32,000 nucleotides of DNA from Candidatus Caldarchaeum subterraneum (GCA_000270325.1 BA000048.1:372933-404932); one strand, 5' to 3'. Positions 8,661 through 24,706 are shown, counted from the first letter of the stretch. Notes: a model not told the origin generated them from the sequence alone. Translations and numbers: made by a program.

Positions 8661-9214
8661 ATGTTATTAACGGGTCGCACCGAGCTGGAGACATGAGTGA
8701 CAACCAGTGTCTGAGGGTTGTTTATTCTAAGAGGGAGACCCGCGAGTTCCTCGACAAACCGGTTGACATGGATACAATCAGTAAAATTCTCGAGGCGGGG
8801 AGGCGTGCGGGTAGCGCCAAAAACAGGCAGCCATGGCAATTCATACTCATAAGGGAAAAGGAAAACCTGCGAAAGCTCTCCAATTTTGGACAGTTTGCAC
8901 AGCATCTGCCCAGCGCCGCATTCGCCATAGTCATAACAATCCCCGACAAATATTTTCAGGACAGGTTTGACGCGGGAAGAGCGGCCCAAAACATGATGCT
9001 AGCAGCACATATCCTCGGCCTCGGCTCATGCCCCATAACTCTCCACAGCGAGGAAGCAGCCAAAAACCATCTCAACATACCGGGCGACCAGCGCATAGCC
9101 ATCTGCATAGCCTTCGGACACCCCAAACCATCCAAACCACTCGGCAAAATAATCAGAAAACCACTACACGAAATACTGCATCTAGAAAAATACGGCAACC
9201 AGCCGAAAAGCTAA
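8654..9214 (+). CDS. Nitroreductase-family protein
   Basis: RETREFLDKPVDMDTISKILEAGRRAGSAKNRQPWQFILI is the typical nitroreductase N-terminal pattern. The start could instead be ATG 8693 (MSDNQ...). Confidence 0.85.
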   Translation: MVDVINGSHRAGDMSDNQCLRVVYSKRETREFLDKPVDMDTISKILEAGRRAGSAKNRQPWQFILIREKENLRKLSNFGQFAQHLPSAAFAIVITIPDKYFQDRFDAGRAAQNMMLAAHILGLGSCPITLHSEEAAKNHLNIPGDQRIAICIAFGHPKPSKPLGKIIRKPLHEILHLEKYGNQPKS

Positions 9215-9255
9215 GCTTTTTAGACGACCAACAAAAAATACATTCGACAACAGTT

Positions 9256-9275
9256 GCCGGGGTCCCCAAGCCTGG
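9256..9275 (+). repeat. attL: orphan copy of the first 20 nt of tRNA-Ser(GCU)
   Basis: GCCGGGGTCCCCAAGCCTGG is identical to 16427-16446. The flanking bases differ on both sides. Confidence 0.85.
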
Positions 9276-9301
9276 AAAAAGGACTTTTTTAGGACCTCTA
9301 A

Positions 9302-10324
9302 CTAATTGCTTTTATTTATCTTTGTTGCTATTTTGATTGGGGGTTTTAATCCTGCTAGGAATTTGTGAAGGTCTCTACCGTGTATTTTCATGGCCTGTTT
9401 GTAACTTTTTTCATCGATTTTTCCTGAACTTCTAAGGGTCTCGAGGGCCTCTTTTATGAGACTGAGTCGTGCTCGGTTGTCTGTTTTCTTGTGCATGATA
9501 ATGTTTCTCCGTTTTATTTTCTGTTGATTAACGGCTGCTTCCAACAGTTTTGTCCAGCCCTTAGGCGCCCATCCCCTCCGCTCGAAAAACCTAATGATGT
9601 CAACACAAGTTGCATTACCCCGCTGCTCGAAGGTGTTTAGAAAATGCAGAATCATGAGCGCAGCGGCTTGCTTCATCCGAGCCTTGTCCACTATCTTCTT
9701 CTCGGGATCTTGGAAGGCGGTGAAGTCTAAAGAGAGTGAAAGTTTGGCGGAGAAACTTAGCTCGGTGCCAATTGTTTCTTCTGAGAGTTCTTCCCCCTCA
9801 TTTAACTCATAGTTAACCATATCGAAGAGAGATTGTGTAAAGTATTCCCAGAAAAATTCGTTAACAAACCTTTGAGTCAACCTTTCCACTACATCTCGCC
9901 GCTGATAGACTCTTCCATGCTCTAGGGTGAAAAATCTTCTGTCATAATCTATTCTCTCACCCAACTTCTCTGATATGAACAAACGTGCATGATAAGATGT
10001 AGGTGCGGGAATTTCTTCATAAAATATCAGCTTTAGGGGATTGACGGGATCTATGAGAAGCTTTGGTTCACACTCCTCATCATACACAAGCATCTCGCGG
10101 CGACTGTGGTGCTCACTGTATCCTTTTTCGGTTAGCATATACATGCCACGTTTCCCCGGTTCCTTCTCTACAAGCCCCTCACTCATCAAGCTCTTCAGCG
10201 TCTTAATGACCCCCTGTCTACTAGCCCTAACCGCGCTAACAAGCTCTGTTACCGAGTGGGGGCCATCGAAAAGAGCGTCCAATACATCTTTTCTAAGTGT
10301 GTGTTTTCTTCCCAATGTAAACAA
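9302..10324 (-). CDS. Winged-helix (MarR/ArsR-like) DNA-binding protein with an uncharacterised C-terminal domain of about 260 aa
   Basis: 340 aa. The N-terminus DVLDALFDGPHSVTELVSAVRASRQGVIKTLKSLMSEGLVEKEPGKRGMYMLTEKG fits a wHTH pattern. I cannot assign the remainder. Confidence 0.6.
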   Translation of the reverse strand: MFTLGRKHTLRKDVLDALFDGPHSVTELVSAVRASRQGVIKTLKSLMSEGLVEKEPGKRGMYMLTEKGYSEHHSRREMLVYDEECEPKLLIDPVNPLKLIFYEEIPAPTSYHARLFISEKLGERIDYDRRFFTLEHGRVYQRRDVVERLTQRFVNEFFWEYFTQSLFDMVNYELNEGEELSEETIGTELSFSAKLSLSLDFTAFQDPEKKIVDKARMKQAAALMILHFLNTFEQRGNATCVDIIRFFERRGWAPKGWTKLLEAAVNQQKIKRRNIIMHKKTDNRARLSLIKEALETLRSSGKIDEKSYKQAMKIHGRDLHKFLAGLKPPIKIATKINKSN

Positions 10325-10367
10325 AATGTCAACTTTTCTTATTATTAAATTTTTTAAGCGTTATTGT

Positions 10368-10511
10368 ATGTTGAGTAAGAAAAAACTCCGGAAAGTCTTG
10401 AAGATTGGCACGTCGAAGGCCGTGGTCATTCCAGCCACAATCGAATCAGAGTATGTCTGGGTATCCGAAGACGATGGGCGAATTGTGATCGAGCCTGCGC
10501 GGGTGAAATAA
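10368..10511 (+). CDS. AbrB/SpoVT-type small DNA-binding protein
   Basis: From ATG 10368: MLSKKKLRKVLKIGTSKAVVIPATIESEYVWVSEDDGRIVIEPARVK, a looped-hinge-helix pattern (kiG.S.avviP....dg.ivi.P). The A/T-rich box ATTATTAAATTTTTTA lies upstream. The rest of track ORF 10041..10511 is an antisense shadow of 9302..10324. Confidence 0.65.
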   Translation: MLSKKKLRKVLKIGTSKAVVIPATIESEYVWVSEDDGRIVIEPARVK

Positions 10512-10687
10512 TGAGCGGAAAGAAAAAACCTATGATACGTGAGGCCCTGCTCGGTGAGGGAGAGGCCGTATGCGATTACTGTAGCACCGTTGATAGGTCG
10601 GAGAATTTTCTGGAAATACGCAGCCCATCCAGTGACAGCGTCCGGCATATGTGTCGCGATTGTTTTGGTGCAAAGGGGAAGAGATGA
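10511..10687 (+). CDS. Small zinc-ribbon protein (58 aa)
   Basis: My own translation, below the track size cut-off: MSGKKKPMIREALLGEGEAVCDYCSTVDRSENFLEIRSPSSDSVRHMCRDCFGAKGKR. It has CxxC-x23-CxxC. Its ATG overlaps the AbrB stop codon (TAATG), suggesting translational coupling. Confidence 0.5.
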   Translation: MSGKKKPMIREALLGEGEAVCDYCSTVDRSENFLEIRSPSSDSVRHMCRDCFGAKGKR

Positions 10688-10726
10688 GCTCCAGAGATGT
10701 TTCCTAGGAGAAGAAGGTGAGCACAG

Positions 10727-11583
10727 ATGGGGGAGACGACTAATCTGAGGGCTGATGATTATTTTTCTCGGGGGCTTGTAGTCATCCCGCTTGTTAGAGG
10801 CGATAAGAGACCGATGGTGAGTGAGTGGCAGAAAAAATCCCGTGAAGAGCTTTTTGCAGTATTCAGAGAACATAGCGGCTGCAACATTGGCATTAGACTA
10901 GACAGCCTTACGGTTCTCGACATCGAGCATGCACGGCTGTGGAGACTCTTCTTCGAAACAGAGCCACGTGAACTCGCTTCGAAGACATGGGTTAGCAGAA
11001 CAGGCGGAGGAGGATATCACGTTTATTTCAAAGGCTCCACAACACCATCGAAAGCCGATGGATACGCTGAGCTCCGTTCAGGTGAAAAACAATTCGTTGT
11101 GGCACCCCCTCAACACACCCCTCCGGAGATAGGTATAAGTGGTTGACCGATATAGAGACTGTAGGCATAGCTACACCCAACTCACATGAACTGTTTGAGC
11201 AGGCGAGAAAGGTCATAGAGACTCTCCGGCTCCATAGTCGCTTAATAGAGAGGCTCGTCGACGCATGGAGGCCCGAGCATAGACACAACCTTGCACTATG
11301 GGTATCCGGAGCCCTCCGCAAAACAGGCGTCGGAAAAACAGAAGCCAAGATAATCGTGAAAACAATATGCCTACTCGCCGACGATCAAGAACTGGATGAT
11401 AGGCTGCGCGCCGTGGAAGACACGTATAGGAAATCAATAGAGGAGGTGAAGGCGTGGAGCGGACTTAGGCAGGAACTTGTCACCCTCATAGGCGAAGAGG
11501 CTGCGGAGAAGCTGCTGCATCTTTTTCAAGCTACCAAGGATAAAAGCGGGGAAACGAAGGGAAAAAAGAACTGCACGTCTTGA
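10727..11583 (+). pseudogene. Bifunctional DNA primase-polymerase (prim-pol) with PriCT-like C-terminal domain, interrupted by a 1-nt frameshift in a C5 run (11105-11109)
   Basis: Track ORFs 10727..11146 and 11143..11583 are two halves of one gene. The first half has VVIPLVRGDKRP, LDIEH, SRTGGGGYHVYFKG and FVVAPP. Reading the second frame back to 11110 gives STHPSGDRYKWLTDIE, completing the family motif PPS.HpsG..Y.W. RPEHRHNLALWVSGALRKTG is PriCT-like. Confidence 0.75.
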
Positions 11584-12869
11584 GTCGTGTGAAGCCTCTA
11601 ATGATGGAGGCCATTGCGTTTCAAAACATTGTCGGTGAATATGATGACCGTTTGCTGATTTATGAAAACGGTTCCTTCAGTGTTGTAGAGCAGCTGGAGC
11701 TTAATGGGTTCGTTTTTAAGCCCCGGCCTCGGAAATCATATCCCTACGAACCGTATGCATTTTCTGATGGTCCTGCACCCTATAGGCTTGAGCTCATTGA
11801 AAGAGTTTACCGCGAAGTTGATACCTTTGTTGACGCGGAGCCAGAGGTGAAGGCCGTGTTCACAGCTTTTGTCATTCTCTCTTATGTGCAGGAAAAGTTT
11901 GACTGCATACCCTACCTCTACCTCGTTGGCGATAATGAAAGTGGTAAAAGCCATACCCTAAACCTATTTACATGGCTGTGCTATCGCCCATTCTCAGGAG
12001 TCAGCCACACCGCGGCCGACCTCTACAGCTACCTCGAAGATGATGGTTTGCCGCTCACTATAATCGAGGACGAGTTTCAGGGTTCGGAGGAGGATAATGA
12101 CAAGATGAAGATCTACAAGAGTGGCTACAAGCGGGGTGCGCGAGTAGGACGGGTCGTCACCTATGAGGGAGGGCGGAGAATAGACTACTTTAACACATAT
12201 GGGATGAAAATTATGGCTGGTGAGCGGCTTATCGAGAACAAGGGCCTTTTGCAGAGATGCATCATAGTGGAGCTGGTCGAGGGTTATCCCGTGAAGGACC
12301 ACTATGATGAAAGTGACTATTTTCGGTTCAGGGCCCTCAGAAACGACCTACTCAAATGGCGCATGAAAGTGCTAGCTGGTGACGAGCATCTCGAACAGCC
12401 TGTCACAGAGCTCAAAGGCCGAGCGCGTGAACTCTACACACCACTTCTTGCCGTACTTAAAGGACATGAGTTCTATGAAAAAGTGATTGAATGGATAAAA
12501 AAGCTAGAGCAGCAAAAGATGGCTGAAAAACAATTATCGGTCGAAGGGCTGCTCGCGAAAATTTTGCTCGACTCGGTTCGCAAAGGAGAGAATGAACTAG
12601 CTCTCGACAAGATTTGGCAGGCGCTTCTCCAGTTTGCGGATGTCGTTACCACTCCTAACAAACCCGATACTATGTATATCCCCCACATCGGTAGCGTTAC
12701 TAAGAAACTCCTGGGCCGTCGGCTGCGAGAAGTCTTCGCCGCCTCGAGAAGATATACGAGACTAGAGGGGCGACAGAGTGTCGTGTATTGCTTTGATGCG
12801 TGTAAAGTGACCCGCCTAGCCCGTAAATATGGCCTTGACCCGCAGATTTCGACGCAACTTTCTCTCTAA
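11580..12869 (+). CDS. Primase-associated P-loop NTPase (putative replicative helicase/loader, DUF3631-like by recollection)
   Basis: 429 aa with Walker A GDNESGKS, Walker B LTIIEDEF, and then YKSGYKRGARVGRVV. The track start is TTG 11580, overlapping the prim-pol stop codon; ATG 11601 is an alternative. Confidence 0.6.
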   Translation: MSRVKPLMMEAIAFQNIVGEYDDRLLIYENGSFSVVEQLELNGFVFKPRPRKSYPYEPYAFSDGPAPYRLELIERVYREVDTFVDAEPEVKAVFTAFVILSYVQEKFDCIPYLYLVGDNESGKSHTLNLFTWLCYRPFSGVSHTAADLYSYLEDDGLPLTIIEDEFQGSEEDNDKMKIYKSGYKRGARVGRVVTYEGGRRIDYFNTYGMKIMAGERLIENKGLLQRCIIVELVEGYPVKDHYDESDYFRFRALRNDLLKWRMKVLAGDEHLEQPVTELKGRARELYTPLLAVLKGHEFYEKVIEWIKKLEQQKMAEKQLSVEGLLAKILLDSVRKGENELALDKIWQALLQFADVVTTPNKPDTMYIPHIGSVTKKLLGRRLREVFAASRRYTRLEGRQSVVYCFDACKVTRLARKYGLDPQISTQLSL

Positions 12870-12937
12870 GGGGCGCCTTTGGTCTGAAGGGGGTTGAGGG
12901 TCCACGTATCTACAGCTAGACGCCGACCTCAACGCAG

Positions 12938-13076
12938 CTCATAAGCTCATAAAATCCACAAAAGCTGAACACAGGGGGGAGGTTGAAAAGCCTTTTTTAC
13001 CCAACAACCAGCCGAAAAAGGCTATTTTAGAGATACGGTCTATCGCCTTGTTTTATGGATTTTATGAGCTTATGAG
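12938..13076. repeat. 26-bp imperfect inverted repeat (1 mismatch) flanking an 87-bp spacer; each arm contains a tandem CTCATAA half-site
   Basis: 12938-12963 is CTCATAAGCTCATAAAATCCACAAAA. 13051-13076 is TTTTATGGATTTTATGAGCTTATGAG, its reverse complement apart from one position. It lies in the only long non-coding block of the element. Confidence 0.85.
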
Positions 13077-13197
13077 TCAAGAAATAATTACAGTTTATAC
13101 TTTAGGTTTACAACAAAACATGGATTGAGTTATTCTCACATATTAAGAGGTAGGGGGGAGGGGGGTTAAATACTCGGGTATTACCTCTATAACCTCC

Positions 13198-13209
13198 AAA
13201 AATATAAAG
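13198..13209 (+). promoter_or_regulatory. TATA box of the ABC::GNAT gene (near-leaderless)
   Basis: AAAAATATAAAG, centred about 25 nt upstream of ATG 13229. Confidence 0.5.
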
Positions 13210-13228
13210 TTTTGTTGGATTTGTTTGG

Positions 13229-14692
13229 ATGGGTCGCCAGTTTATCCTCGACAAAATAGAGGTGGTGCTCCATCGTATCCCAACGCATTTTTCGAGGGTT
13301 GGGTTTTTCGCTGGGCTGCGAACTCGTTTGTCTTATGTGTTTACTGGTGTCTCTAAGCGGACGATGCGGGTAGGTAAGGTTGCGGAGTTGATGGGCCTTG
13401 GACTCGAGGATGTCGAGCTGCCCGCGTTCAAGGATTCTGAAATAAATTTTGAGGCAGGCGATGTGGTCTATGTCACGGGTGAGAGCGGCGGCGGGAAAAG
13501 CCTGCTTTTACGCCACCTCGCCAAGCAGATGAGGAATAACCCAGAGTTTGCTCCTGTTGCATGTTCATGGCGGCTTAACATACCGCGTGACAAGCCCTTG
13601 ATAGACTGTGTTGGACGGGATGTGAAAGAGGCTGTGGAGGTTTTGTCTGCGGCTGGTCTGAGCGATGTCTTCACATGGTTCCGCAGGTTTGATGAATTAA
13701 GCGATGGACAGAAGATGCGGTTCATCTTCGCGAAGGCCCTCGACACAGGGGCTAGGACGATTATCATTGACGAGTTCTGTTCAGTGCTTGATAGGGAGAC
13801 CGCAAAGGCCACGGCCTACACGATGCAGAAGCTCGCCCGCAGACGGGGCATAACGCTCATAGTCGCGACAGCGATAGACGACCTCGTGGAAGACCTTAAC
13901 CCTAACCTGCTTATCATCAAGCATTTGGGGCCCCATCTAGAGGTAAAGCGTCTCAACCCGGTTCCACGGCCCTGCAGCCTACTCGAGAAAGTTGTTGTAG
14001 AGGAAGGTTCGACAGAGGACTGGCGGCTGCTAAGCTTTCTCCACTATCGAAGCCATCACACCCCCGCGGCTGTCAAGATTTTCCGCGCCGTTTTGAACGG
14101 CCGTGTCGTCGGCGTGGTGGTGTATGCGAAGCCGTATCTACATGCGACAGGCTATTCACGGTTTTTCCGGCCGGATTGGTATCTCCGTGAGAGGATGAAT
14201 CATGTTCTCCGTATTTCGCGGGTTGTTGTTCATCCGAGCTTCAGGGGAATAGGTGTGGCCCGTAAGCTTTTGATAGAGTCTCTGCCACGGCTAGATGTCC
14301 CGTTTGTGGAGATACTTTCCACGATGGAGAGGCTTATACCGTTTACACGCAGCATCATGACAAGGTGGACGGTTGTCGAGCCAAACAAGGAGAAAAAGGC
14401 CCTGCTCAAAGAGTTCCGTGACAAGTTTGGTGTGGATGTGATGAGACACGGCGTCGACCAAATACTTCGCTACATAAACGAGAAAGGCCTGCTCAACGAA
14501 TTGAGGCGATGGCTCCTCGATAACCTAGAGAAATTCGCAGACGCAGCCGCGTCATCACGAGACACAGCCAACATGCTCAAGACCCTCAAATCATCATGCA
14601 GCAGCAAAGTCTACGCCATATGGATAAACCCCAACAAAAAATTTGAGAAAATAATACGTGAAGCCATAACCGACCAGAGTTTCTTATTATGA
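13229..14692 (+). CDS. Soluble ABC-type ATPase fused to a GNAT-like acetyltransferase domain (uncharacterised family)
   Basis: 487 aa. ABC motifs: Walker A GESGGGKS, signature LSDGQKMR, Walker B TIIIDEF. The C-terminal half has VVGVVVYAKP...LRISRVVVHPSFRGIGVARKLL, which is GNAT motif A (R/Q-x-x-G-x-G/A). There is no adjacent permease gene. Confidence 0.8.
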   Translation: MGRQFILDKIEVVLHRIPTHFSRVGFFAGLRTRLSYVFTGVSKRTMRVGKVAELMGLGLEDVELPAFKDSEINFEAGDVVYVTGESGGGKSLLLRHLAKQMRNNPEFAPVACSWRLNIPRDKPLIDCVGRDVKEAVEVLSAAGLSDVFTWFRRFDELSDGQKMRFIFAKALDTGARTIIIDEFCSVLDRETAKATAYTMQKLARRRGITLIVATAIDDLVEDLNPNLLIIKHLGPHLEVKRLNPVPRPCSLLEKVVVEEGSTEDWRLLSFLHYRSHHTPAAVKIFRAVLNGRVVGVVVYAKPYLHATGYSRFFRPDWYLRERMNHVLRISRVVVHPSFRGIGVARKLLIESLPRLDVPFVEILSTMERLIPFTRSIMTRWTVVEPNKEKKALLKEFRDKFGVDVMRHGVDQILRYINEKGLLNELRRWLLDNLEKFADAAASSRDTANMLKTLKSSCSSKVYAIWINPNKKFEKIIREAITDQSFLL

Positions 14693-14749
14693 AAATGCAG
14701 AAAGGAGAACATGGCACCTTAAGCCCTTGAAATAATGGTGAAATGATCG

Positions 14750-15214
14750 TTACTTTTTCTTTCTCCATAAAAGAGAGGCTACAAGCATTAGTATGCCCGC
14801 AAGGAAGAGAGAGGATGCACCTGGTCCGAATGTAAAGTATGCCTCAACAGGTTTTGCTATCTCACGTAACCTGTTGGTAAGCTGATGAAAGACTATAAAG
14901 GGTATCGCAAGGCTTGTAAGAGAAAGGATGGTCGCCACAATTTTTTTCCATGGTTTGTAGGCAGTAAAGAAAAAGACCGTACATACCAATAGAAGCGCAA
15001 CAGAAAAAGAGCTTTCAATAATTTCATGTGTAAAGATGGTACCAGCAATGGTGTGAAGTAGAAACGTCGGCATAAACAAAGCAAGAAGAGCGAAACCTAT
15101 GCTCACAATGGCAATGATTATACTCCACAACGGAAGTCTTCGCATTAGTCGACTTAAATCCTTTTTTTTGTCTAGACTTAGAATATTACCGGTTACTCTC
15201 GGCTTGAGAGACAT
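14750..15214 (-). CDS. Small integral membrane protein (about 4 TM helices)
   Basis: 154 aa with four long hydrophobic stretches. It starts 21 nt downstream of the integrase gene on the same strand. Confidence 0.6.
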   Translation of the reverse strand: MSLKPRVTGNILSLDKKKDLSRLMRRLPLWSIIIAIVSIGFALLALFMPTFLLHTIAGTIFTHEIIESSFSVALLLVCTVFFFTAYKPWKKIVATILSLTSLAIPFIVFHQLTNRLREIAKPVEAYFTFGPGASSLFLAGILMLVASLLWRKKK

Positions 15215-15235
15215 TAATCGGTGTCCCGCTTGCTT

Positions 15236-16303
15236 CTATTCTAGGTCTAGCAGGCGCATGAAATTGGGGAATTTTTCCTCAAGTTTGGCGAAGATTTTTT
15301 CGTATAATTTGACGGCTTCCTCAAGCGCGTGTAATCTCTCCTCAATGTTGGTGGGGATGGGTTGTTTAAGGGTTAGCAGGTTCTCGGCCTTTCTCCACTC
15401 TTTGACTATGTCGTCATAGGTGAGCCGGAGATAATGTTGTTCGATCCCTATCCGGTGACCTAAGAGGAGGCCGACGACCATTGAATTCACGCCTGCTCGG
15501 ACAAGGTTTGTTTCATATGAGCGGCGTAGACCGTGGATTGTGTATCGCCACCCTATTCCGCTTTTATCTCTCTCGGCCCTGTTTGCTTTGATCAATGCCG
15601 ACCTGAATGCGGCTCTCAGCTTCGTTCTTGCAAGCGGTTTCGATGGATTGCCTCGTGGGTGGAAGATAAAGTCCCCGGGTTGGAGACGCTGAAGATGTTG
15701 TTTCAAGGCCTCTGCTATATCTGTCGGAAGCGGCACCTCTCTCGGTTCATGCGTCTTTTCCGAAATCACGGTCAGCTTCGGCGGATCTATGGTAAAGTCT
15801 ATGTCACGGGCCCTAAGACTAAGGGCCTCACCTATTCTTAGTCCGGTCGCCCAAATCAGCCATATAGCCAGCCGTTTAGTGGAGTTATCCATGTTTTCGA
15901 GAACAGCCTCGACAACATCCCGCGGCACCGCTTCGTTGAAACGGACATTCCGCTTCTTAGGAAGCAGATTTTCCACGCGGCTCCAGTTGATGGGTCTAGC
16001 GTAGAGACTTAGAAAACTCTTGACGGCTTGATAGTGGAGGCGGATACTCTGTGGAGCAAGGCCCTCATCCCGCAAATGTCTGATGAAGAGGACTAGATCC
16101 TTTTCCTCCGCCCTCATCGCCGCATCAACGAGATCGCTGAAGCCACATGTTGTCACGAATCGTCTCATAGCTGCTCGATAATTCTCCGCCGTGGTTCCCG
16201 TCTTCGCAGAGAGGAACCCTTCCCAGACATCCAAAACACCTAAATCTCGAGAAACATCTTCTTCATGCGATGGCCCTGCACCCACCACCACATCGACCCA
16301 CAA
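15236..16303 (-). CDS. int: Tyrosine recombinase / integrase (intact, non-partitioning type)
   Basis: ATGLRIGEALSLR (catalytic Arg), HGLRRSY (H-x-x-R), LLGH and EQHYLR (Tyr). The start is uncertain: the track start is TTG 16303, and in-frame GTG codons follow within 10 codons. Confidence 0.9.
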   Translation of the reverse strand: MWVDVVVGAGPSHEEDVSRDLGVLDVWEGFLSAKTGTTAENYRAAMRRFVTTCGFSDLVDAAMRAEEKDLVLFIRHLRDEGLAPQSIRLHYQAVKSFLSLYARPINWSRVENLLPKKRNVRFNEAVPRDVVEAVLENMDNSTKRLAIWLIWATGLRIGEALSLRARDIDFTIDPPKLTVISEKTHEPREVPLPTDIAEALKQHLQRLQPGDFIFHPRGNPSKPLARTKLRAAFRSALIKANRAERDKSGIGWRYTIHGLRRSYETNLVRAGVNSMVVGLLLGHRIGIEQHYLRLTYDDIVKEWRKAENLLTLKQPIPTNIEERLHALEEAVKLYEKIFAKLEEKFPNFMRLLDLE

Positions 16304-16393
16304 AAAACAACAAAGACTCGAATTTAAACGAGACGATTATGAGACCTTCTCCGGACCTCATAGCGGAAAGCCGTATTACCTTCATACCAAAAA

Positions 16394-16403
16394 GGATAAA
16401 TAG
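16394..16403 (+). promoter_or_regulatory. TATA-like box for tRNA-Ser, located inside the integrated element
   Basis: GGATAAATAG, centred about 28 nt upstream of tRNA position 1 (16427). Confidence 0.45.
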
Positions 16404-16426
16404 AGAAGGTGGGTTAGGGGTCTAAA

Positions 16427-16446
16427 GCCGGGGTCCCCAAGCCTGG
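16427..16446 (+). repeat. attR: 20-bp core within the intact tRNA-Ser gene
   Basis: Identical to 9256-9275. It covers the acceptor 5' strand and the D-arm through G18-G19. Confidence 0.85.
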
Positions 16447-16509
16447 TATGGGGCTGGTCTGCTAAACCAGTGGCCTTTGGCCGCGCGGGTTCAAATCCCG
16501 CCCCCGGCG
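16427..16509 (+). tRNA. tRNA-Ser (anticodon GCU)
   Basis: Hand-folded. Acceptor GCCGGGG/CCCCGGC. D-stem CCCA/TGGG with GG in the loop. Anticodon stem CTGGT/ACCAG with loop CT-GCT-AA. Long variable arm GGCC-TTT-GGCC. T-arm GCGGG-TTCAAAT-CCCGC. Discriminator G. No intron and no encoded CCA. Confidence 0.9.
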
Positions 16510-16527
16510 CCTAAGAGGCACTTCTTA

Positions 16528-16560
16528 GACGCCTCGGAGGCGTCCCCGAGACACCTTTTT
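16528..16560 (+). terminator. Hairpin plus T5 tract downstream of tRNA-Ser
   Basis: GACGCCTC-G-GAGGCGTC palindrome, followed by CCCCGAGACACCTTTTT. Confidence 0.4.
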
Positions 16561-16611
16561 AGTAAAGCAGCTGAACGAAAAAGACGCCCCATAGACGTCT
16601 GATTGACGCCT

Positions 16612-17466
16612 TCAGGTTTTGCAACTTTTAACGAGGATTAGTGAGAGGATTACCAGTAGAGTTAGCAAAACGGATTGGGCTATCAGCATTATTAATATGT
16701 ATTTCTGCTCGGGTGTGGATGATTGTTGAGGACTTGTTTGAGTGGTGTTGTCGGCTCTTTGTGGTGGTAGGTTCACTATGCATGCGGAGAAGACCTTTAC
16801 GTAGTTTCCAGAGGTGTCGACGTTTTCGGGGCTTAGTTTCTTCGAGCTGATGACTAGGTAAAAGTTCTCGCCCGTAACTTTTGGATAGCCGTAGGTGAGG
16901 ACGTTTACGTCGTTCACAAAGAATCTTATGATGGTTTCGTCATCTACCTCTGAATAAACCGCCTTGAGGGTGTAGGTCTTCTCTACTCCTAGAGGTATGT
17001 CATCAAGCCGGAATTCTCTGAAAAACTCAGGTATCCTCGGCGACTGGATGTAACCATTTATCGTGGACGATTTTTGCCGTATCACGAAGCCAAACTCATC
17101 CCCTGTGAAGACTTTCGTGTCGTCGGTGACGAATACGGCGAACTCATCCCTATCACTTGGTGAACGATTCTCCATGTATATGCTTATCCGCGTCGAGAGG
17201 GCGAATGTTCTGCCAGCCTCGATGGATGTGGTGGCTAACGCGTCTTGGTAAACGTTTGTTGCGCGGCTTCCCGTGAACAGGTAGTGGTCGCCGTTGTAGA
17301 CCGGTTGTGGGCCCATGGTGTTGTACCATTTGAAGTTTCTGTCGTAGGCTGTTGCGAGGTCTAGACATAATTCTCTGGGCTGGTCTTCTCCATGGGCTAC
17401 GGCGGTGGAGGACATGAGTAGGAGGGCGAGTAACATGGGTAGCAGTTGAACCTGTTTTAGCTTCAT
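16612..17466 (-). CDS. Secreted, C-terminally anchored protein (partner of the GT2 synthase)
   Basis: 284 aa. Signal-like MKLKQVQLLPMLLALLLMSSTAVAHG, an S/T/Q/P-rich linker, and C-terminal TM IMLIAQSVLLTLLVILSLILV. Its start codon is 4 nt downstream of the GT2 stop codon. Confidence 0.65.
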   Translation of the reverse strand: MKLKQVQLLPMLLALLLMSSTAVAHGEDQPRELCLDLATAYDRNFKWYNTMGPQPVYNGDHYLFTGSRATNVYQDALATTSIEAGRTFALSTRISIYMENRSPSDRDEFAVFVTDDTKVFTGDEFGFVIRQKSSTINGYIQSPRIPEFFREFRLDDIPLGVEKTYTLKAVYSEVDDETIIRFFVNDVNVLTYGYPKVTGENFYLVISSKKLSPENVDTSGNYVKVFSACIVNLPPQRADNTTQTSPQQSSTPEQKYILIMLIAQSVLLTLLVILSLILVKSCKT

Positions 17467-17470
17467 GTTC

Positions 17471-19201
17471 TCAGTCGTCCTTCTTTATGACCTCAAAACC
17501 TTTCGGAGGGTTTATGAGAGCATACCATGGTGCGCAGGCCTCAAGCATCATTCCGCCGATAACGGCGAATATTATTCTGTACCTTCTACGGTGTCCTCTT
17601 TTTTCGGGACCTGTGAGATAAGCATCGTTCAACTTGTAGCCGCCTGCGTGGTAGCGGTATAGCGAGTACCATGTGAATCCTGCTATGATTCCTGAGGCGG
17701 GGAAAAGCCCTCCTGTAGGGTAGATTATGCTTACCGCGAACGCTATCAGAGATGGTAGTGCCGACATCCAGCTGACCACGCCGTATAGTGCTGCGAGCCT
17801 GTACCTCGGCCTGATTCTCTTGTCAAACACTATCTGCATGGCTCCGTGGGCCCATCGTCTTCTCTGTTTTAGGAGGTCTTTGGTCGTGAGAGGGGGTTTC
17901 TCGTAGCCGTATCCTTTTAGAATCGTCTTTCCAGGCCTGTGCCGCTGCCACATCATTAAGCCGAACATCCAATCCTCTGTCTTAACATCGCCGAAGTCCC
18001 ATCCAACGGCGGCTTCGACGTCTGCTCTCACGAGTAGATGTGAGCCGTGGTGTCCAAACGATAGTTTACCGTTTGTCTTGGTTGTGAGGAGTATTCTGAA
18101 GTCGTCGTAGCTACGGGAGGGTTCCTGGGCCCTTGAAGGGGTGTAGGTCAGGGAGTCGGCGTAGTTTATTATGCCGGCGGCGTAGATGTCGTGGTCACCC
18201 GCGTTGATGATGTAGTCCATTATCCCCAGTATCGTGTCTTCACCAACTTTTGTTTCATCATCCTGATGATATATCCATGTGTCTTTGTTTACAAGACCTT
18301 CCTCAGCCATGACTTTATTGGCGTAGACAAGTGCTCTCGCCTTGTACCTTGTCCCGTTAACTGTGTTGAATTCGCGTGGGACAATTATTACTCTCGCGCC
18401 CATGGAGGCCAACTCACCGTAGCCTTTCACGTTCGCTTCATAATCATCTTGTTCGCAGATGATCCATTGGGAAATATCAGCCATTTTTCCATGTTTCAGT
18501 TCGATGATTTCTTTCCAGAAAATTGCGGATTCTACTGACATTTTTACGGTGACGTGGTTCCCGCCTTTGGTCGGTAAAATGAAGATGACGTGTTTATTCT
18601 TCAATTGCGCAGCGTTTTTCGTGATGTTTTGCTCATTTATGAGAAAATCATCTTTGCCGAATGAGAGGTATCCGATGTTTTGGAGTATTAAATGCGGGGT
18701 GCCGATCAGCCAGCTATACTTTAGGCTGTGTGCCACAAACTCTATTCCTGTCGTGACGGCTGGGGCGCCGGAGAACAAGGTGCCCATTAGGAAAGAGAAG
18801 CCGAGCAGGTCAACTACATGTTGCCGTTTCTCGTCAAAAACCGTATCGATTGATCGGTTGAAATTATCGACCGTGTATCGTAGGTAGGCCGGGTGGCTCA
18901 GTTCCCCGTGTGGGGGCCTGTGGTGGGTAAGGCTGTTGTCCATGTTTCGGTTGTTTGCAACTACTAAAACTGCTGCGATGGATGATAGTGAGAGGTCCAT
19001 CAGCAGGATTAGCGACGACGGGGAAGACCTCTGCATATTCTCGTAAGCCCATTGGAAGACGGAGTTGGAGTAGAGGGCCCATGGTCTCAGGTAGGCCAGT
19101 TCATAATTGGGTATTAGTGCTGGGAAAAGGATTGAGAGCACGATTACGGCTAAGACCCAGAAGAATAGCCGGGAAAAAGTCCTGAACAGGGTTAGCTGCA
19201 T
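17471..19201 (-). CDS. Membrane-embedded processive family-2 glycosyltransferase (cellulose/chitin/hyaluronan-synthase-like)
   Basis: 576 aa with N- and C-terminal TM bundles. The central GT-A domain has HQDDE, TED (VKTEDWMFG) and Q-x-x-R-W (QRRRWAHG) motifs. Confidence 0.85.
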   Translation of the reverse strand: MQLTLFRTFSRLFFWVLAVIVLSILFPALIPNYELAYLRPWALYSNSVFQWAYENMQRSSPSSLILLMDLSLSSIAAVLVVANNRNMDNSLTHHRPPHGELSHPAYLRYTVDNFNRSIDTVFDEKRQHVVDLLGFSFLMGTLFSGAPAVTTGIEFVAHSLKYSWLIGTPHLILQNIGYLSFGKDDFLINEQNITKNAAQLKNKHVIFILPTKGGNHVTVKMSVESAIFWKEIIELKHGKMADISQWIICEQDDYEANVKGYGELASMGARVIIVPREFNTVNGTRYKARALVYANKVMAEEGLVNKDTWIYHQDDETKVGEDTILGIMDYIINAGDHDIYAAGIINYADSLTYTPSRAQEPSRSYDDFRILLTTKTNGKLSFGHHGSHLLVRADVEAAVGWDFGDVKTEDWMFGLMMWQRHRPGKTILKGYGYEKPPLTTKDLLKQRRRWAHGAMQIVFDKRIRPRYRLAALYGVVSWMSALPSLIAFAVSIIYPTGGLFPASGIIAGFTWYSLYRYHAGGYKLNDAYLTGPEKRGHRRRYRIIFAVIGGMMLEACAPWYALINPPKGFEVIKKDD

Positions 19202-19356
19202 GTTTTCACATCCAATTCACGTGCAAACTATCGCCGCGTGGTATAAGAGGGTTTTATTCATGTAGCATGATGGATGTTGGGCTGAAGATATTTAGAAGGT
19301 TTTAGACGTTTGGCGGGCTGACGGATGTGCCGAGATTGGCGTCTGTCTGGAAGAGC

Positions 19357-20325
19357 CTATTGCTTCCACCATATTTCAGTTAATCGTTTTTTGATTAAGA
19401 GAGGCTTTAGGTATTGGATGGTTTTCTCCAGTCCATCCTCTTGGCTCATCACGGGGTCTTCGTGCTCATAGCTCATGACGTAGTCGTAGCCTACTTCCGC
19501 GAAAGCTGTGATGACTCTTTTCCAGGGAACCTGTCCCCATCCCGGTATTCTGAACCTAAAGCCTCTATCGGGTCGTAGCCAGCTACCTGTAGGTATCGCT
19601 CCCGATGTTGATAGATTTTCGGCCACAAGCTCCCCATCCTTCGCATGCGAGTGGAAGATTCTGTCTCCGAATTTTTTAATGAAGACAACGGGGTCAATAA
19701 GCTGCCATATCAAGTGGCTTGGGTCAAAGTTGAATCCAAACTCCTTCTTCCAATTAATGGCTTTAAGAGCCTGTTCCGCTGTTTCCACGTTATAAGCCAG
19801 TTCCTGTGGATGAACTTCGTGCGCAAACTTGACGCCGCAGCTGCTGTAGTAATCCAGTATCTCTCCCCATCGTTCGGCGAATAATTCAAAGTAGGACTCA
19901 AAAATCTTGTCATATCCGAATGGGAAGTTGTACCATGCACCCCAGTTGGGGCATCCTATAAAACCTACAACAACGGGTACATCAAGAAGGTTGGCGACAT
20001 CACATGTCTTTTTCATCCTCTCGATGCCATACTTCACCTTCTCTTCAGGGCTTCCTTTAAAGATGCCATCGGTCGAGGCATCATGAGGCCCCAACACCAG
20101 CTGTCCCTCGAGATGATTAGATACCGCAGAAATGAGCAGCTGGTTGTTTTCGATAATCCGTTTTATTTCCTGAGCTCCTCCGCCCAAGGCCTTGTCTATG
20201 TCTAAATGCAGGCTTCCGCGCCAGCATGCAAGCTCGACAGCTTCATAGCCAAAGGACGCGATTTTTGGGGCAATTTTTTCTAAAGGTACATCATTATACA
20301 GAACAGTAAATACACCCAACTTCAT
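19357..20325 (-). CDS. Sugar phosphate isomerase/epimerase (xylose isomerase-like TIM barrel)
   Basis: 322 aa with FGYEAVEL, HSHAKDGE and SYEHED metal-ligand-type motifs of the AP-endonuclease-2/xylose-isomerase-like fold. Confidence 0.75.
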   Translation of the reverse strand: MKLGVFTVLYNDVPLEKIAPKIASFGYEAVELACWRGSLHLDIDKALGGGAQEIKRIIENNQLLISAVSNHLEGQLVLGPHDASTDGIFKGSPEEKVKYGIERMKKTCDVANLLDVPVVVGFIGCPNWGAWYNFPFGYDKIFESYFELFAERWGEILDYYSSCGVKFAHEVHPQELAYNVETAEQALKAINWKKEFGFNFDPSHLIWQLIDPVVFIKKFGDRIFHSHAKDGELVAENLSTSGAIPTGSWLRPDRGFRFRIPGWGQVPWKRVITAFAEVGYDYVMSYEHEDPVMSQEDGLEKTIQYLKPLLIKKRLTEIWWKQ

Positions 20326-20415
20326 AAATGATCGTGTAGTTCCTTTTTCTGATGGTTTATATGCTTTTGGAGGCTGGTGGGATTGTTTGTTGGTTTTATT
20401 TGTGCGTCGTTGGCC

Positions 20416-20490
20416 CGGGCCCGGTGGGACTTGAACCCACGACCTCCGGCTCCGAAGGCCGCCGCGCTATCCATTCTGCGCCACGGGCCC
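20416..20490 (-). tRNA. tRNA-Arg (anticodon UCG)
   Basis: Hand-folded on the minus strand. Acceptor GGGCCCG/CGGGCCC. D-arm GCGC-AGAATGGATA-GCGC. Anticodon loop CT-TCG-GA. 5-nt variable loop. T-arm GTGGG-TTCAAGT-CCCAC. Discriminator G. There is one G-G mismatch at 27:43. Confidence 0.85.
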
Positions 20491-20513
20491 CCGCTATCCA
20501 TGATGTTGTCGAT

Positions 20514-20525
20514 GGTTATAAAATG
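20514..20525 (-). promoter_or_regulatory. TATA box for tRNA-Arg
   Basis: The minus strand reads CATTTTATAACC, centred about 29 nt upstream of the tRNA 5' end. Confidence 0.5.
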
Positions 20526-24091: not shown

Positions 24092-24706
24092 GTGGATGAG
24101 ATTCTTCCGCCGGGACAGGTGTGGGCGAGGAACTGGGTTATTTACTCTGCGTTGGGTACGCCGAAAATAGATGTCGAGGGTTACAGGCTTCGTGTCACGG
24201 GCCTTGTTGAGGAGCCTCGTGAATACAGTTATCAGGAGTTGCTCGAGATGGCTGACGTCGAATATGTCAAGCCTTTCCATTGTGTGACCAAGTGGAGCAT
24301 CAGGGAGGTCCGGTGGACGGGTGTCAGCATGAAGAGGTTGCTGGAGAATTCGCGGGTCAAGAAGGAGGGGAAGTGGCTGATGTTTGTATGTGCTGATGGA
24401 TACACCGCTCCCGTGCCTTTGGATGATGCTTTATCCGAGGAGGCGATTGTCGCGCTTAAAATGGATGGGCGACCGCTCGAGGTTGACCAAGGTTTCCCAG
24501 CAAGGCCGTTTATCCCCCATCTCTATGGATGGAAAAGCGCGAAATGGCTTGTCGAGATGGAGGTAATACCGACCTATGTAGATGGATACTGGGAGATGTA
24601 TGGCTATCACGAGAGAGGCAACGTTTGGGGAGAGGAGAGGTTCAAGGGCATGGGTTTCAGACACGCACTAAGAAAGGCGGCGGGCATCATTCAGAGGGGA
24701 ACTTGA
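24092..24706 (+). CDS. Molybdopterin-binding oxidoreductase domain protein (sulfite-oxidase / MsrP-YedY-like)
   Basis: FHCVTKWSIREVRWTGVSMKRLL, ADGYTAPVPLDDAL and MDGRPLEVDQGFPARPFIPHLYGWKSAKWLVEMEV. GTG start, with TATA GATATATT about 25 nt upstream. Confidence 0.8.
   Translation: MDEILPPGQVWARNWVIYSALGTPKIDVEGYRLRVTGLVEEPREYSYQELLEMADVEYVKPFHCVTKWSIREVRWTGVSMKRLLENSRVKKEGKWLMFVCADGYTAPVPLDDALSEEAIVALKMDGRPLEVDQGFPARPFIPHLYGWKSAKWLVEMEVIPTYVDGYWEMYGYHERGNVWGEERFKGMGFRHALRKAAGIIQRGT

Follow-up and report, generated by a model that had tools for sequence, protein, structure and literature searches.

CalSub-E1, a plasmid-like element integrated at the 5′ end of tRNA-Ser(GCU) in Candidatus Caldiarchaeum subterraneum

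Results

A direct repeat at tRNA-Ser(GCU)

The window analysed here is a stretch of 32,000 nucleotides from the Ca. Caldiarchaeum subterraneum sequence BA000048, with a window-to-genome offset of +372,932 that is constant across gene coordinates. It contains the 20-mer GCCGGGGTCCCCAAGCCTGG exactly twice, at 9256-9275 and 16427-16446, both times on the + strand (Table 1). An exact string search thus bears out the perfect direct repeat of the original prediction. With up to three mismatches allowed, there is no further copy in the window that would point to a dispersed repeat, and none of 100 shuffled windows has two or more matches. The chance expectation, first put at about 1e-3, was of the right order: ~5e8 position pairs multiplied by 4^-20 give ~5e-4.

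Position 16427 is also the first nucleotide of an intact tRNA-Ser(GCT), as called by both ARAGORN and Rfam. The right copy of the repeat, the attR core, therefore corresponds to nucleotides 1-20 of the tRNA, in agreement with its earlier reading as the acceptor 5′ strand and D-arm of tRNA-Ser(GCU). The left copy, the attL core, represents the 5′ end that the tRNA gene originally had, now displaced but still attached to the host upstream region.

Table 1 Features of the insert and its target, in window coordinates
Feature	Position	Strand	Remarks
attL core, distal repeat copy	9256-9275	+	exact repeat; left side aligns to L021 empty site, right side does not
Motif copy TTAGAGGTC	9292-9302	-	holds GGACCTC; inverted, ~17 nt inside left end
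340-aa protein with N-terminal winged helix-turn-helix (wHTH), CSUB_C0396	9302-10324	-	weak wHTH Pfam matches, residues 8-70
47-aa AbrB/MazE-like DNA-binding protein	10368-10511	+	PF04014, E 3e-4; first gene of putative replication operon
58-aa Zn-ribbon ORF	10511-10687	+	CDYC...CRDC (CxxC...CxxC), from translation
Replicase: PrimPol, PriCT-1 linker, putative superfamily-3 helicase	10727-12869	+	three ORFs in window
Replicase ORF 1, Prim-Pol	10727-11146	+	
Replicase ORF 2, P-loop	11143-11583	+	146 aa
Replicase ORF 3, P-loop	11580-12869	+	429 aa
Large stem-loop, candidate replication origin	12938-13076	.	26-nt arms, 87-nt loop
ABC-type ATPase and GNAT acetyltransferase fusion, CSUB_C0400	13229-14692	+	Pfam ABC_tran and Acetyltransf_1
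154-aa hydrophobic protein, CSUB_C0401	14750-15214	-	membrane-spanning as read by eye from hydrophobic stretches
Tyrosine integrase, CSUB_C0402	15236-16303	-	PF00589, E 9e-22; XerA-like by NCBIfam
Element-borne P′ arm	16321-16426	+	identical layout and spacing in 14 other related elements
TATA-like AATTTAAAC	16321-16329		in P′ arm; predicted, probable int promoter
Imperfect inverted repeat TTATGAGACC/GGACCTCATAG	16337-16363		in P′ arm
GTATTACC	16373-16380		in P′ arm
TATA box GGATAAATAG (predicted)	16394-16403		in P′ arm, 24-33 nt upstream of tRNA
Motif copy TTAGGGGTC	16414-16422		in P′ arm
Reconstituted tRNA-Ser(GCU)	16427-16511	+	ARAGORN; Rfam RF00005, 56 bits

Integrase and gene content

The gene content first listed for the insert, namely an integrase, a prim-pol, P-loop, wHTH, AbrB and Zn-ribbon proteins, an ABC::GNAT fusion and a membrane protein, is confirmed. 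Profile searches with Pfam, PHROGs, NCBIfam and PADLOC return functions of integration, replication and regulation and, as predicted, no capsid, portal, terminase or conjugation genes. Proteases, too, give no match in Pfam or PHROGs. VirB4/VirD4-type ATPases, pilins and a relaxase are equally absent from the element ORFs in profile searches that include Pfam and NCBIfam. We rejected an integrative-conjugative element for this lack of conjugation genes; 7 kb is also too small for one.

The integrase ORF, of 355 aa, is intact and divergent from the tRNA, with its start 123 bp away. All six catalytic residues (R-K-H-R-H-Y) are present: with 12 homologues aligned, five of them (R156, K183, H257, R260 and H283) never vary, and Y291 is kept in at least 90%. 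SSV-type elements carry attP within int and split the gene on integration. Here the gene abuts the tRNA-proximal repeat, whole and outside att, so it is not of that type, as the original prediction had concluded. Like the non-partitioned integrases of the pNOB8 type, whose attP lies outside int and whose gene shares its strand with the tRNA (PMC3293823), it stays whole beside the rebuilt tRNA; unlike theirs, it is divergent from the tRNA, whose 5′ end it faces.

Replicase and candidate origin

The Prim-Pol ORF matches PF09250 with an E-value of 4e-16 (1e-20 in a further profile search). The replicase is split in the window by 1-bp homopolymer differences at 11105 (C5 vs C6) and 11548 (G4 vs G5). 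The independent contig L004 encodes it as one ORF of 714 aa, and the L001 assembly holds an intermediate state, with only the extra G. Because this pattern is typical of homopolymer errors, the split is probably a sequencing artefact. The copy in the reference genome could still be non-autonomous, since its replicase is interrupted twice. At full length the protein aligns to the single-ORF replicases of two related elements, L018 and L019 (703 and 708 aa).

The nearest solved structure is the prim-pol domain of pRN1 ORF904 (PDB 1rni, E 1e-3; also 3m1m). With tblastn, the replicase matches small Sulfolobus and Thermococcus plasmids at ~24-32% identity over parts of the protein; pRN1 itself is not among these matches. 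The Walker-A motif is GDNESGKSH. The helicase domain has no significant Pfam match (AAA_23 and DUF3631 are weak, E ~0.05), and in tblastn its region weakly matches the Sulfolobus plasmid NC_010365 (E 2e-5). Its assignment to superfamily 3 is a tentative one, which draws on the weak plasmid matches and on the published annotation of CalSub-E1 (PMC6563490).

The large stem-loop begins 69 bp past the replicase stop codon; its inverted repeat is 96% complementary and its DNA fold has a z-score of -6.5. In L019, the corresponding place downstream of rep is taken by a 107-nt inverted repeat. The origin of pRN1 is a ~100-bp stem-loop that begins 54 bp downstream of orf904 (PMC4234260), so that a large stem-loop ~50-70 bp downstream of rep is common to both replicons, and by this analogy the one described here may be the replication origin.

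Regulatory and accessory genes

Among 5.8 billion proteins the 340-aa wHTH protein matched only itself. This ORFan is probably a regulator, judging from its N-terminal domain; its AF2 model (pLDDT 40) is unusable for structure search. The Zn-ribbon ORF has no family match, and for the hydrophobic 154-aa protein, also an ORFan, a search of 1.8 billion representatives gave a single distant homologue. The gene of the 340-aa protein is missing from L018 and L019, where the other two are not conserved either. The 154-aa protein was also considered as a relative of the membrane proteins that adjoin the ABC-GNAT gene of a provirus, and is not related to them.

The ABC-GNAT fusion has more than 400 homologues and an AF2 model of pLDDT 90.5. 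In a fold search against the PDB, the ABC half alone was matched; against BFVD, phage Mom was matched weakly (E 3e-5), which we regard as no more than a lead. A literature search on COG2401 gave no match. PADLOC returned generic ABC and wHTH matches alone for the element ORFs, hence no known defence system.

Related elements and the P′ arm

Fourteen related integrases, at 38-68% identity, face a tRNA gene, tRNA-Ser(GCU) or tRNA-Met(CAU), at its 5′ end. All 15 elements have a TATA box and a GTAWTACC motif, conserved and at equal distances, which would drive the rebuilt tRNA. The elements L018 (7.0 kb) and L019 (5.5 kb) have a backbone of int, AbrB and Rep in common with the insert, and nothing else; they are bounded by repeats of 22 and 35 bp that likewise end at tRNA nucleotide 20. 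The AbrB-like protein is 34-39% conserved in the two elements; L018 has a weak RHH/NikA-like protein in its place.

The promoter and binding functions ascribed to the P′ arm sites are predictions from this conservation. As a weak extra signal, the original prediction had pointed to the heptamer GGACCTC just inside both ends. Its positions are correct, but the heptamer alone is not enriched, with 7 copies in the window against 4.7 expected. Rather than being noise, it probably belongs to a genuine repeated motif: L018 and L019 have their own version at the matching coordinate, +39 from tRNA nucleotide 1. The inverted copy near the left end may bind the integrase or an accessory protein. Since TWWGRGGTC, the degenerate form of the motif, was built from the three sites themselves, its count is no independent test.

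Empty and occupied sites

An empty site had been expected in relatives, with a nitroreductase directly followed by tRNA-Ser, and this is what the MAG L021 contains. Its gene order is nitroreductase, tRNA-Ser, a 285-aa gene and GT2, and its flanking glycosyltransferase is 97% identical to that of the window. Just at the 20-mer, the alignment passes from the left flank of the insert to the tRNA of the window, and the 7171 bp between the two copies are precisely what L021 lacks. This site was located by protein synteny. Look-ups with the 186-aa nitroreductase and the 468-aa upstream ORF gave no match, as called starts differ, and the 173-aa start matched. The exact predicted empty-site string (L10+R+T10) was found neither in GTDB species representatives nor in JGI metagenomes, and the predicted circular attP junction string is absent from IMG/VR.

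Logan contigs (k=31) end at 9275, span 9246-16456, or start at 16427. Simulated occupied and empty haplotypes together predict exactly these ends, whereas occupied haplotypes only, or occupied haplotypes with a circle, do not. In seven read sets the contig ends point to a mixture of cells, some with the insert and some lacking it, whose flanks are identical; the insertion appears to be polymorphic in nature. A circular junction was not detected, and the Logan ends do not fit an abundant circle. The ends of the L004 MAG contig (9177 and 20514) were considered as k=100 break signatures and set aside because the contig runs unbroken through attR.

Discussion

The 7.17-kb insert is CalSub-E1, very probably a plasmid-like mobile element of Ca. 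Caldiarchaeum subterraneum integrated in tRNA-Ser(GCU). It is not new: CalSub-E1 was published with identical borders in 2019, in Table S2 of Krupovic et al. (Environ Microbiol 21:2056, PMC6563490), as 382188-389378 (7191 bp), with the genes CSUB_C0396-C0402. These coordinates in NC_022786 equal 9256-16446 of the window, and length, att GCCGGGGTCCCCAAGCCTGG and target tRNA-Ser(GCT) all match. That survey already lists primpol, PriCT-1 and S3H replication genes, remarks on the unusual recombination with the 5′-distal part of the tRNA and classes CalSub-E1 as a cryptic integrated element. Element, borders, target and 5′-end integration are thus a correct finding that has been known since 2019. 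The empty site, the profile searches and the intact integrase support the original prediction of a cryptic integrated plasmid, and the publication agrees with it. As a positive control the case has its own value, in that a reading of bare sequence, made without tools, gave the published borders to the base.

To this publication we add the viral ABC-GNAT family, a population signal of two alleles at the site, the 14 relatives with their promoter motifs and the single-ORF replicase, whose primpol, PriCT-1 and S3H parts are separate genes in the survey. Its main text has no mention of 'ABC' or 'GNAT', and in the parts of the article available to us there is none of an empty site, population polymorphism, a promoter cassette or relatives.

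The element's own tyrosine integrase very probably inserted it, through site-specific recombination of a 20-bp attP core with nucleotides 1-20 of the tRNA-Ser(GCU) gene in the chromosome. Entry at the 5′ end would sever the tRNA from its native promoter, for which the element would supply a replacement, probably the upstream TATA box conserved in all relatives. The TWWGRGGTC motifs that flank the core and the GTAWTACC palindrome would be binding sites of the integrase or of a regulator. Once excised, the circle would replicate like pRN1: one operon would provide the AbrB-like repressor and the PrimPol-PriCT-S3H protein, and the latter would assemble on the stem-loop just downstream of its own gene. 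The wHTH protein, the Zn-ribbon, ABC-GNAT and the membrane protein would be variable cargo.

CalSub-E1 resembles the pRN1-family plasmids of Sulfolobales, small cryptic replicons whose replicase combines PrimPol, a helix bundle and an SF3 helicase (PMC4234260). As in pRN1, the gene of a small DNA-binding protein lies just upstream of rep, in the same putative operon. ORF56 of pRN1 is a CopG-like repressor, whereas the protein of CalSub-E1 is AbrB/MazE (PF04014), in an analogous operon position. CalSub-E1 further differs from this family in its host, Caldarchaeales, and in carrying its own non-partitioned integrase. Among thaumarchaeal elements, NitKor_MY1-E1 and NitAQ6f-E4 are likewise tRNA-integrated and cryptic, with primpol-S3H replicases (PMC6563490).

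Might the insert belong to a virus instead? A provirus or virus satellite whose structural proteins have diverged beyond recognition, or an element packaged by a resident head-tail virus as pSSVx is by SSV, is in our view unlikely. Small hydrophobic proteins are the capsid proteins of some archaeal viruses, and the two ORFans (340 and 154 aa) match no assignable function, so that an unrecognised virion protein is conceivable. A CalSub-Pro-like head-tail provirus has a paralogue of the ABC-GNAT gene, with 73% protein identity and 76% DNA identity over 1.3 kb; relatives of ABC-GNAT occur in 162 IMG/VR loci, beside TerL or tail genes. The survey, for its part, allows cryptic integrated elements to be novel viruses or plasmids (PMC6563490). 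Against a provirus stand the lack of matches to capsid, portal, terminase or protease in Pfam and PHROGs, the lack of conservation of both ORFans in the related 5.5-kb and 7.0-kb elements, and the fact that the ABC-GNAT gene is the only sequence, coding or non-coding, common to element and provirus. Judged by its homologues, the ABC-GNAT cargo gene is of a family common in archaeal head-tail viruses. We consider it improbable that CalSub-E1 hitchhikes as a satellite on the head-tail virus of its host, in the way that pSSVx, a plasmid of the pRN family, does on SSV; if it did, ABC-GNAT could serve in packaging, exclusion or protection of the element.

It is similarly improbable that the insert is a dead plasmid remnant, immobile, fixed in the chromosome and decaying, as the two frameshifts of the replicase in the reference sequence and the failure to detect a circular junction in the IMG/VR string search or at Logan contig ends might suggest. 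Against this, the element has perfect direct repeats and an intact integrase, the replicase states in the other two assemblies speak for homopolymer errors, and the contig ends indicate that occupied and empty cells coexist. That a pair of 20-mers merely brackets ordinary chromosome, by chance or as a dispersed repeat, has only the shortness of the repeat in its favour and is practically excluded by its two copies and the shuffled windows, by homologous integrases that adjoin this tRNA and whose repeats stop at the identical tRNA nucleotide, and by the empty site, which already refutes it.

In the survey, all other tRNA-targeting elements use the 3′-distal region of tRNA genes (PMC6563490). 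Independently of any satellite role, CalSub-E1 could represent an integrase family not yet described, which always inserts at tRNA-Ser or tRNA-Met 5′ ends and carries with it a conserved promoter as replacement. Zhao and Williams reportedly described elements integrating into the 5′ part of tRNA genes in 2002, and the survey cites other cases. Such elements are said to share the reversed orientation, with the element upstream of the tRNA and a promoter that must be replaced; in the case of CalSub-E1, the promoter cassette is conserved over 15 related elements that target tRNA-Ser(GCU) or tRNA-Met(CAU). An integrase family found consistently at tRNA 5′ ends, together with this conserved cassette, makes promoter replacement by 5′-integrating elements directly testable.

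Borders, target and gene content

The 20-bp repeat predicted to bound the element is found in exactly two perfect copies, and no further copy exists in the window even with up to three mismatches permitted; two matches arose in none of 100 dinucleotide-preserving shuffles. The right copy constitutes nucleotides 1-20 of an intact tRNA-Ser(GCT), as both the ARAGORN call and that of the Rfam tRNA model (56 bits, 16427-16509) start at 16427. The ORFs between the repeats match the genes listed in the original prediction, whose observation is confirmed and whose interpretation is supported.

This element was described before, under the name CalSub-E1. Its entry in Table S2 of Krupovic et al. (PMC6563490) gives NC_022786 382188-389378, 7191 bp, with the same att sequence and tRNA-Ser(GCT) as target; the coordinates of CSUB_C0396-C0402 are those of the window ORFs plus a constant offset of 372,932. 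As coordinates, att and target all coincide with Table S2, the predicted borders equal the published ones to the base. In its passages on CalSub-E1, the paper classes it as a cryptic integrated element and, among 39 elements that target tRNA genes, as the sole one to have recombined with the 5'-distal part of such a gene (PMC6563490). To the published record we add a replicase split that is likely artefactual, an apparent population polymorphism, a candidate for a pRN1-like origin, and a family of integrases that target 5' ends and share a conserved promoter cassette.

Features of CalSub-E1 and its surroundings (window positions unless stated otherwise)
Feature	Position	Strand	Details
Left repeat, attL core	9256-9275		GCCGGGGTCCCCAAGCCTGG, exact 20-mer search
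Motif T[TA][AT]G[AG]GGTC	9293-9301	-	
wHTH protein	9302-10324	-	340 aa
AbrB/MazE-like protein	10368-10511	+	47-mer
CxxC...CxxC protein	10511-10687	+	58-mer
Prim-Pol	10727-11146	+	PF09250, E 4e-16
Two ORFs after Prim-Pol	11143-12869	+	last is P-loop protein
Inverted repeat	12938-13076		origin candidate
Palindrome GGTAWTACC / GTAWTACC	13177-13185		
ABC-ATPase/GNAT fusion	13229-14692	+	
Hydrophobic protein	14750-15214	-	154 aa
Tyrosine integrase (int)	15236-16303	-	PF00589, E 9e-22
Motif T[TA][AT]G[AG]GGTC	16354-16362	-	
Palindrome GGTAWTACC / GTAWTACC	16373-16380		
TATA box	16394-16403		GGATAAATAG
Motif T[TA][AT]G[AG]GGTC	16414-16422	+	
Right repeat, attR core	16427-16446		GCCGGGGTCCCCAAGCCTGG, exact 20-mer search
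tRNA-Ser(GCT)	16427-16511		ARAGORN
Glycosyltransferase	17471-19201	-	
tRNA-Arg(TCG)	20416-20490	-	
Palindrome GGTAWTACC / GTAWTACC	24562-24570		
TATA box, all elements	-32 to -24 from tRNA		TTAAATAG and variants
GTAWTACC, all elements	-54 to -47 from tRNA		15 elements
Second TATA-like box	~20 nt before int start		15 elements

Empty site in a relative and probable polymorphism

The flanking glycosyltransferase was used to scan GTDB species representatives. A copy 97% identical lies on an 851-kb MAG contig of a relative (L021), in the order GT2, 285-aa gene, tRNA-Ser(GCT), nitroreductase, 277-aa gene, 468-aa gene. Here both window flanks are joined with nothing between, and the nitroreductase directly adjoins the tRNA, the arrangement that the original prediction proposed for an unoccupied site. 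The alignment tracks the left flank of the window up to the 20-mer, which contains one mismatch, then runs on as tRNA; the comparison sets the length of the insertion at 7171 bp plus one copy of the repeat. The relative's tRNA (L021 12685-12767) carries an A at nucleotide 18, in the D-loop, in place of the T of both window copies: the target tRNA therefore varies at a position within the att core.

Short-read assemblies (Logan, k=31) from seven runs (DRR000358, DRR101361-DRR101367) were found via exact-protein look-ups. All six left-flank contigs stop with the final base of the left repeat (9275), and all five right-flank contigs begin with the initial base of the right one (16427). Element contigs end at 16456, and the one complete element contig spans 9246-16456, exactly 10 nt past each repeat. 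With R standing for the repeat, attB was defined as GACAACAGTT+R+TATGGGGCTG and attP as GGGTCTAAA+R+AAAAAGGACT. In simulated k=31 unitigs, an occupied site alone gave no break; an occupied site with a circle gave breaks at 9285, 9256, 16446 and 16417; an occupied site with an empty one gave exactly the observed ends (9275, 9246-16456 and 16427). The simplest reading of these contig ends is a coexistence, in the samples, of cells that carry the element and cells that lack it, with identical flanks. Contig ends of this pattern would also result from a different element in that site.

Four of the five right-flank contigs end at 20444-20445, and the fifth stops earlier, at 18915. An independent MAG contig of archaeon HR03 (BEHF01000002.1, L004) covers 9177-20514, its left end lying 99 nt before 9276. 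The right ends fit 20415 + (k-1), with k=31 for the Logan contigs and k=100 for L004, and position 20415-20416 is the 3' end of tRNA-Arg(TCG). This points to a second haplotype junction precisely at that 3' end, for instance a further insertion, or a rearrangement, that part of the population carries.

Replicase and candidate origin

The published description gives primpol, PriCT-1 and S3H as 'encoded by separate genes' (PMC6563490). Inside the element, L004 differs from the window only by an extra C at 11105 (C5 to C6) and an extra G at 11548 (G4 to G5), and encodes a single 714-aa Prim-Pol protein; a Logan contig (L001) has the extra G only, yielding 139 + 575 aa. Because L004 holds one ORF, and because its product can be aligned over its full length with the replicases of two related elements, each a single ORF (703 and 708 aa), a single polypeptide is the ancestral and probably the true state. 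The three-gene arrangement of the reference is either a homopolymer sequencing error or a very recent decay.

The best solved-structure matches of the replicase are to the prim-pol domain of pRN1 ORF904 (1rni, 3m1m). In a tblastn search of PLSDB, its matches, at 24-32% identity, were limited to small cryptic plasmids from Sulfolobus/Saccharolobus (4.97, 6.97 and 9.69 kb) and Thermococcus, plus a few from bacteria; phage matches are restricted to prim-pol domains. Within the 360-bp non-coding gap downstream lies an inverted repeat with 26-nt arms and an 87-nt loop, starting 69 bp past the replicase stop codon, which as single-stranded DNA folds far better than its shuffles (z-score -6.5). Beyond the orf56/orf904 operon, pRN1 replication needs a stem-loop of ~100 bp that starts 54 bp downstream of orf904 (PMC4234260). 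In the same position, the 5.5-kb relative L019 has a 107-nt inverted repeat and the 7.0-kb relative L018 only a 14-nt palindrome. By analogy, the stem-loop is a candidate for a pRN1-like origin. Given the ORF904 matches, the small-plasmid matches and the stem-loop downstream of the replicase, we infer that the replication module of CalSub-E1 would work like that of pRN1, with the difference that its small upstream protein is AbrB-like, whereas pRN1 has ORF56 there.

Plasmid or provirus

Searches of Pfam, PHROGs, NCBIfam and PADLOC matched no ORF of the element to a family of capsid, portal, terminase, protease or conjugation proteins. Two proteins, of 340 and 154 aa, are ORFans, the former with an unusable structure model; neither is conserved in related elements, which argues against a structural role. 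We agree with the original prediction that CalSub-E1 is a plasmid-like cryptic element rather than a provirus. An unrecognised virus or satellite is unlikely; the satellite reading is raised by the ABC-GNAT protein, whose family is linked to viruses.

This protein has more than 400 homologues, some labelled at source as 'ABC-type ATPase with predicted acetyltransferase domain'. A paralogue 73% identical resides in a head-tail provirus of the same organism (L016, 10001-11458), between a ParB_N gene and the portal gene; the two genes share 76% DNA identity over 1.3 kb, and no other sequence common to the element and the provirus was found. IMG/VR contains relatives at 162 loci; in 80 of them (L034-L113), the commonest conserved neighbours are TerL-like (PF03237), tail-tube, HK97-gp10-like and tail proteins. 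The AF2 model, of high confidence (pLDDT 90.5), matches only ABC nucleotide-binding domains in the PDB; in BFVD its best match is a Leptospira phage 'GNAT' protein, with a weak fold match to phage Mom. The fusion family is frequent in uncultivated, mostly archaeal-looking head-tail viral contigs, where its gene often comes immediately after that for the large terminase or after the final tail gene, and often close to a contig end.

Integrase family and proposed promoter cassette

Five integrase residues (R156, K183, H257, R260, H283) do not vary across 12 homologues, and a sixth, Y291, is conserved in at least 90% of them. Homologues 59-68% identical (contigs L017-L020, L114-L117) all adjoin a tRNA-Ser(GCT), divergent from it and facing its 5' end. 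Those 38-44% identical (L119-L123, L126) form a sister group that is placed in this divergent way at the 5' end of tRNA-Met(CAT), and share GTAWTACC and the TATA spacing with the tRNA-Ser elements; their short contigs showed no direct repeats. The only contigs devoid of a tRNA are those beginning inside int or within ~180 nt upstream of it.

Two relatives have both of their ends on the contig: in L018 the bounding repeat is 22 bp long, with copies 6981 bp apart, and in L019 it is 35 bp long, with copies 5469 bp apart; both repeats end at tRNA nucleotide 20, as in the window. Only the integrase (59-68%), the replicase (29-37%) and the AbrB-like protein (34-39%) are common to L018, L019 and CalSub-E1. 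On L017 (10001-20981), a 64%-identical integrase sits at the same tRNA-Ser 5' end, with HEPN and a complete type I restriction-modification system replacing the replicon, and no distal repeat within 10 kb; defence genes thus also travel with this integration module.

Upstream of the rebuilt tRNA, the sequence brought in by the element has an identical layout in 15 of 15 elements. Host-side sequence upstream of the displaced tRNA fragment is unrelated to it. The element would thus swap the native tRNA promoter for its own. Copies of a motif recur near -93, -71 and -16 in the tRNA-Ser elements having enough upstream sequence, and at +39 in the three elements with both ends. In CalSub-E1 the motif reads T[TA][AT]G[AG]GGTC; this degenerate pattern was derived from the sites themselves, and its support is conserved position, not count. 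The two GGACCTC heptamers originally proposed as a possible arm-type site are the two minus-strand copies; the heptamer alone is not enriched in the window. The repeated motifs are putative binding sites of the integrase or of a regulator.

The GTAWTACC palindrome gives five strand matches in the window against 0.74 expected. Two copies are non-coding and within the element, upstream of ABC-GNAT and of the donated tRNA promoter, and the third falls outside; the palindrome could represent a transcription-factor site that element and host have in common.

Altogether, the integrase of CalSub-E1 belongs to a family that targets the 5' ends of tRNA genes and carries a conserved promoter cassette.
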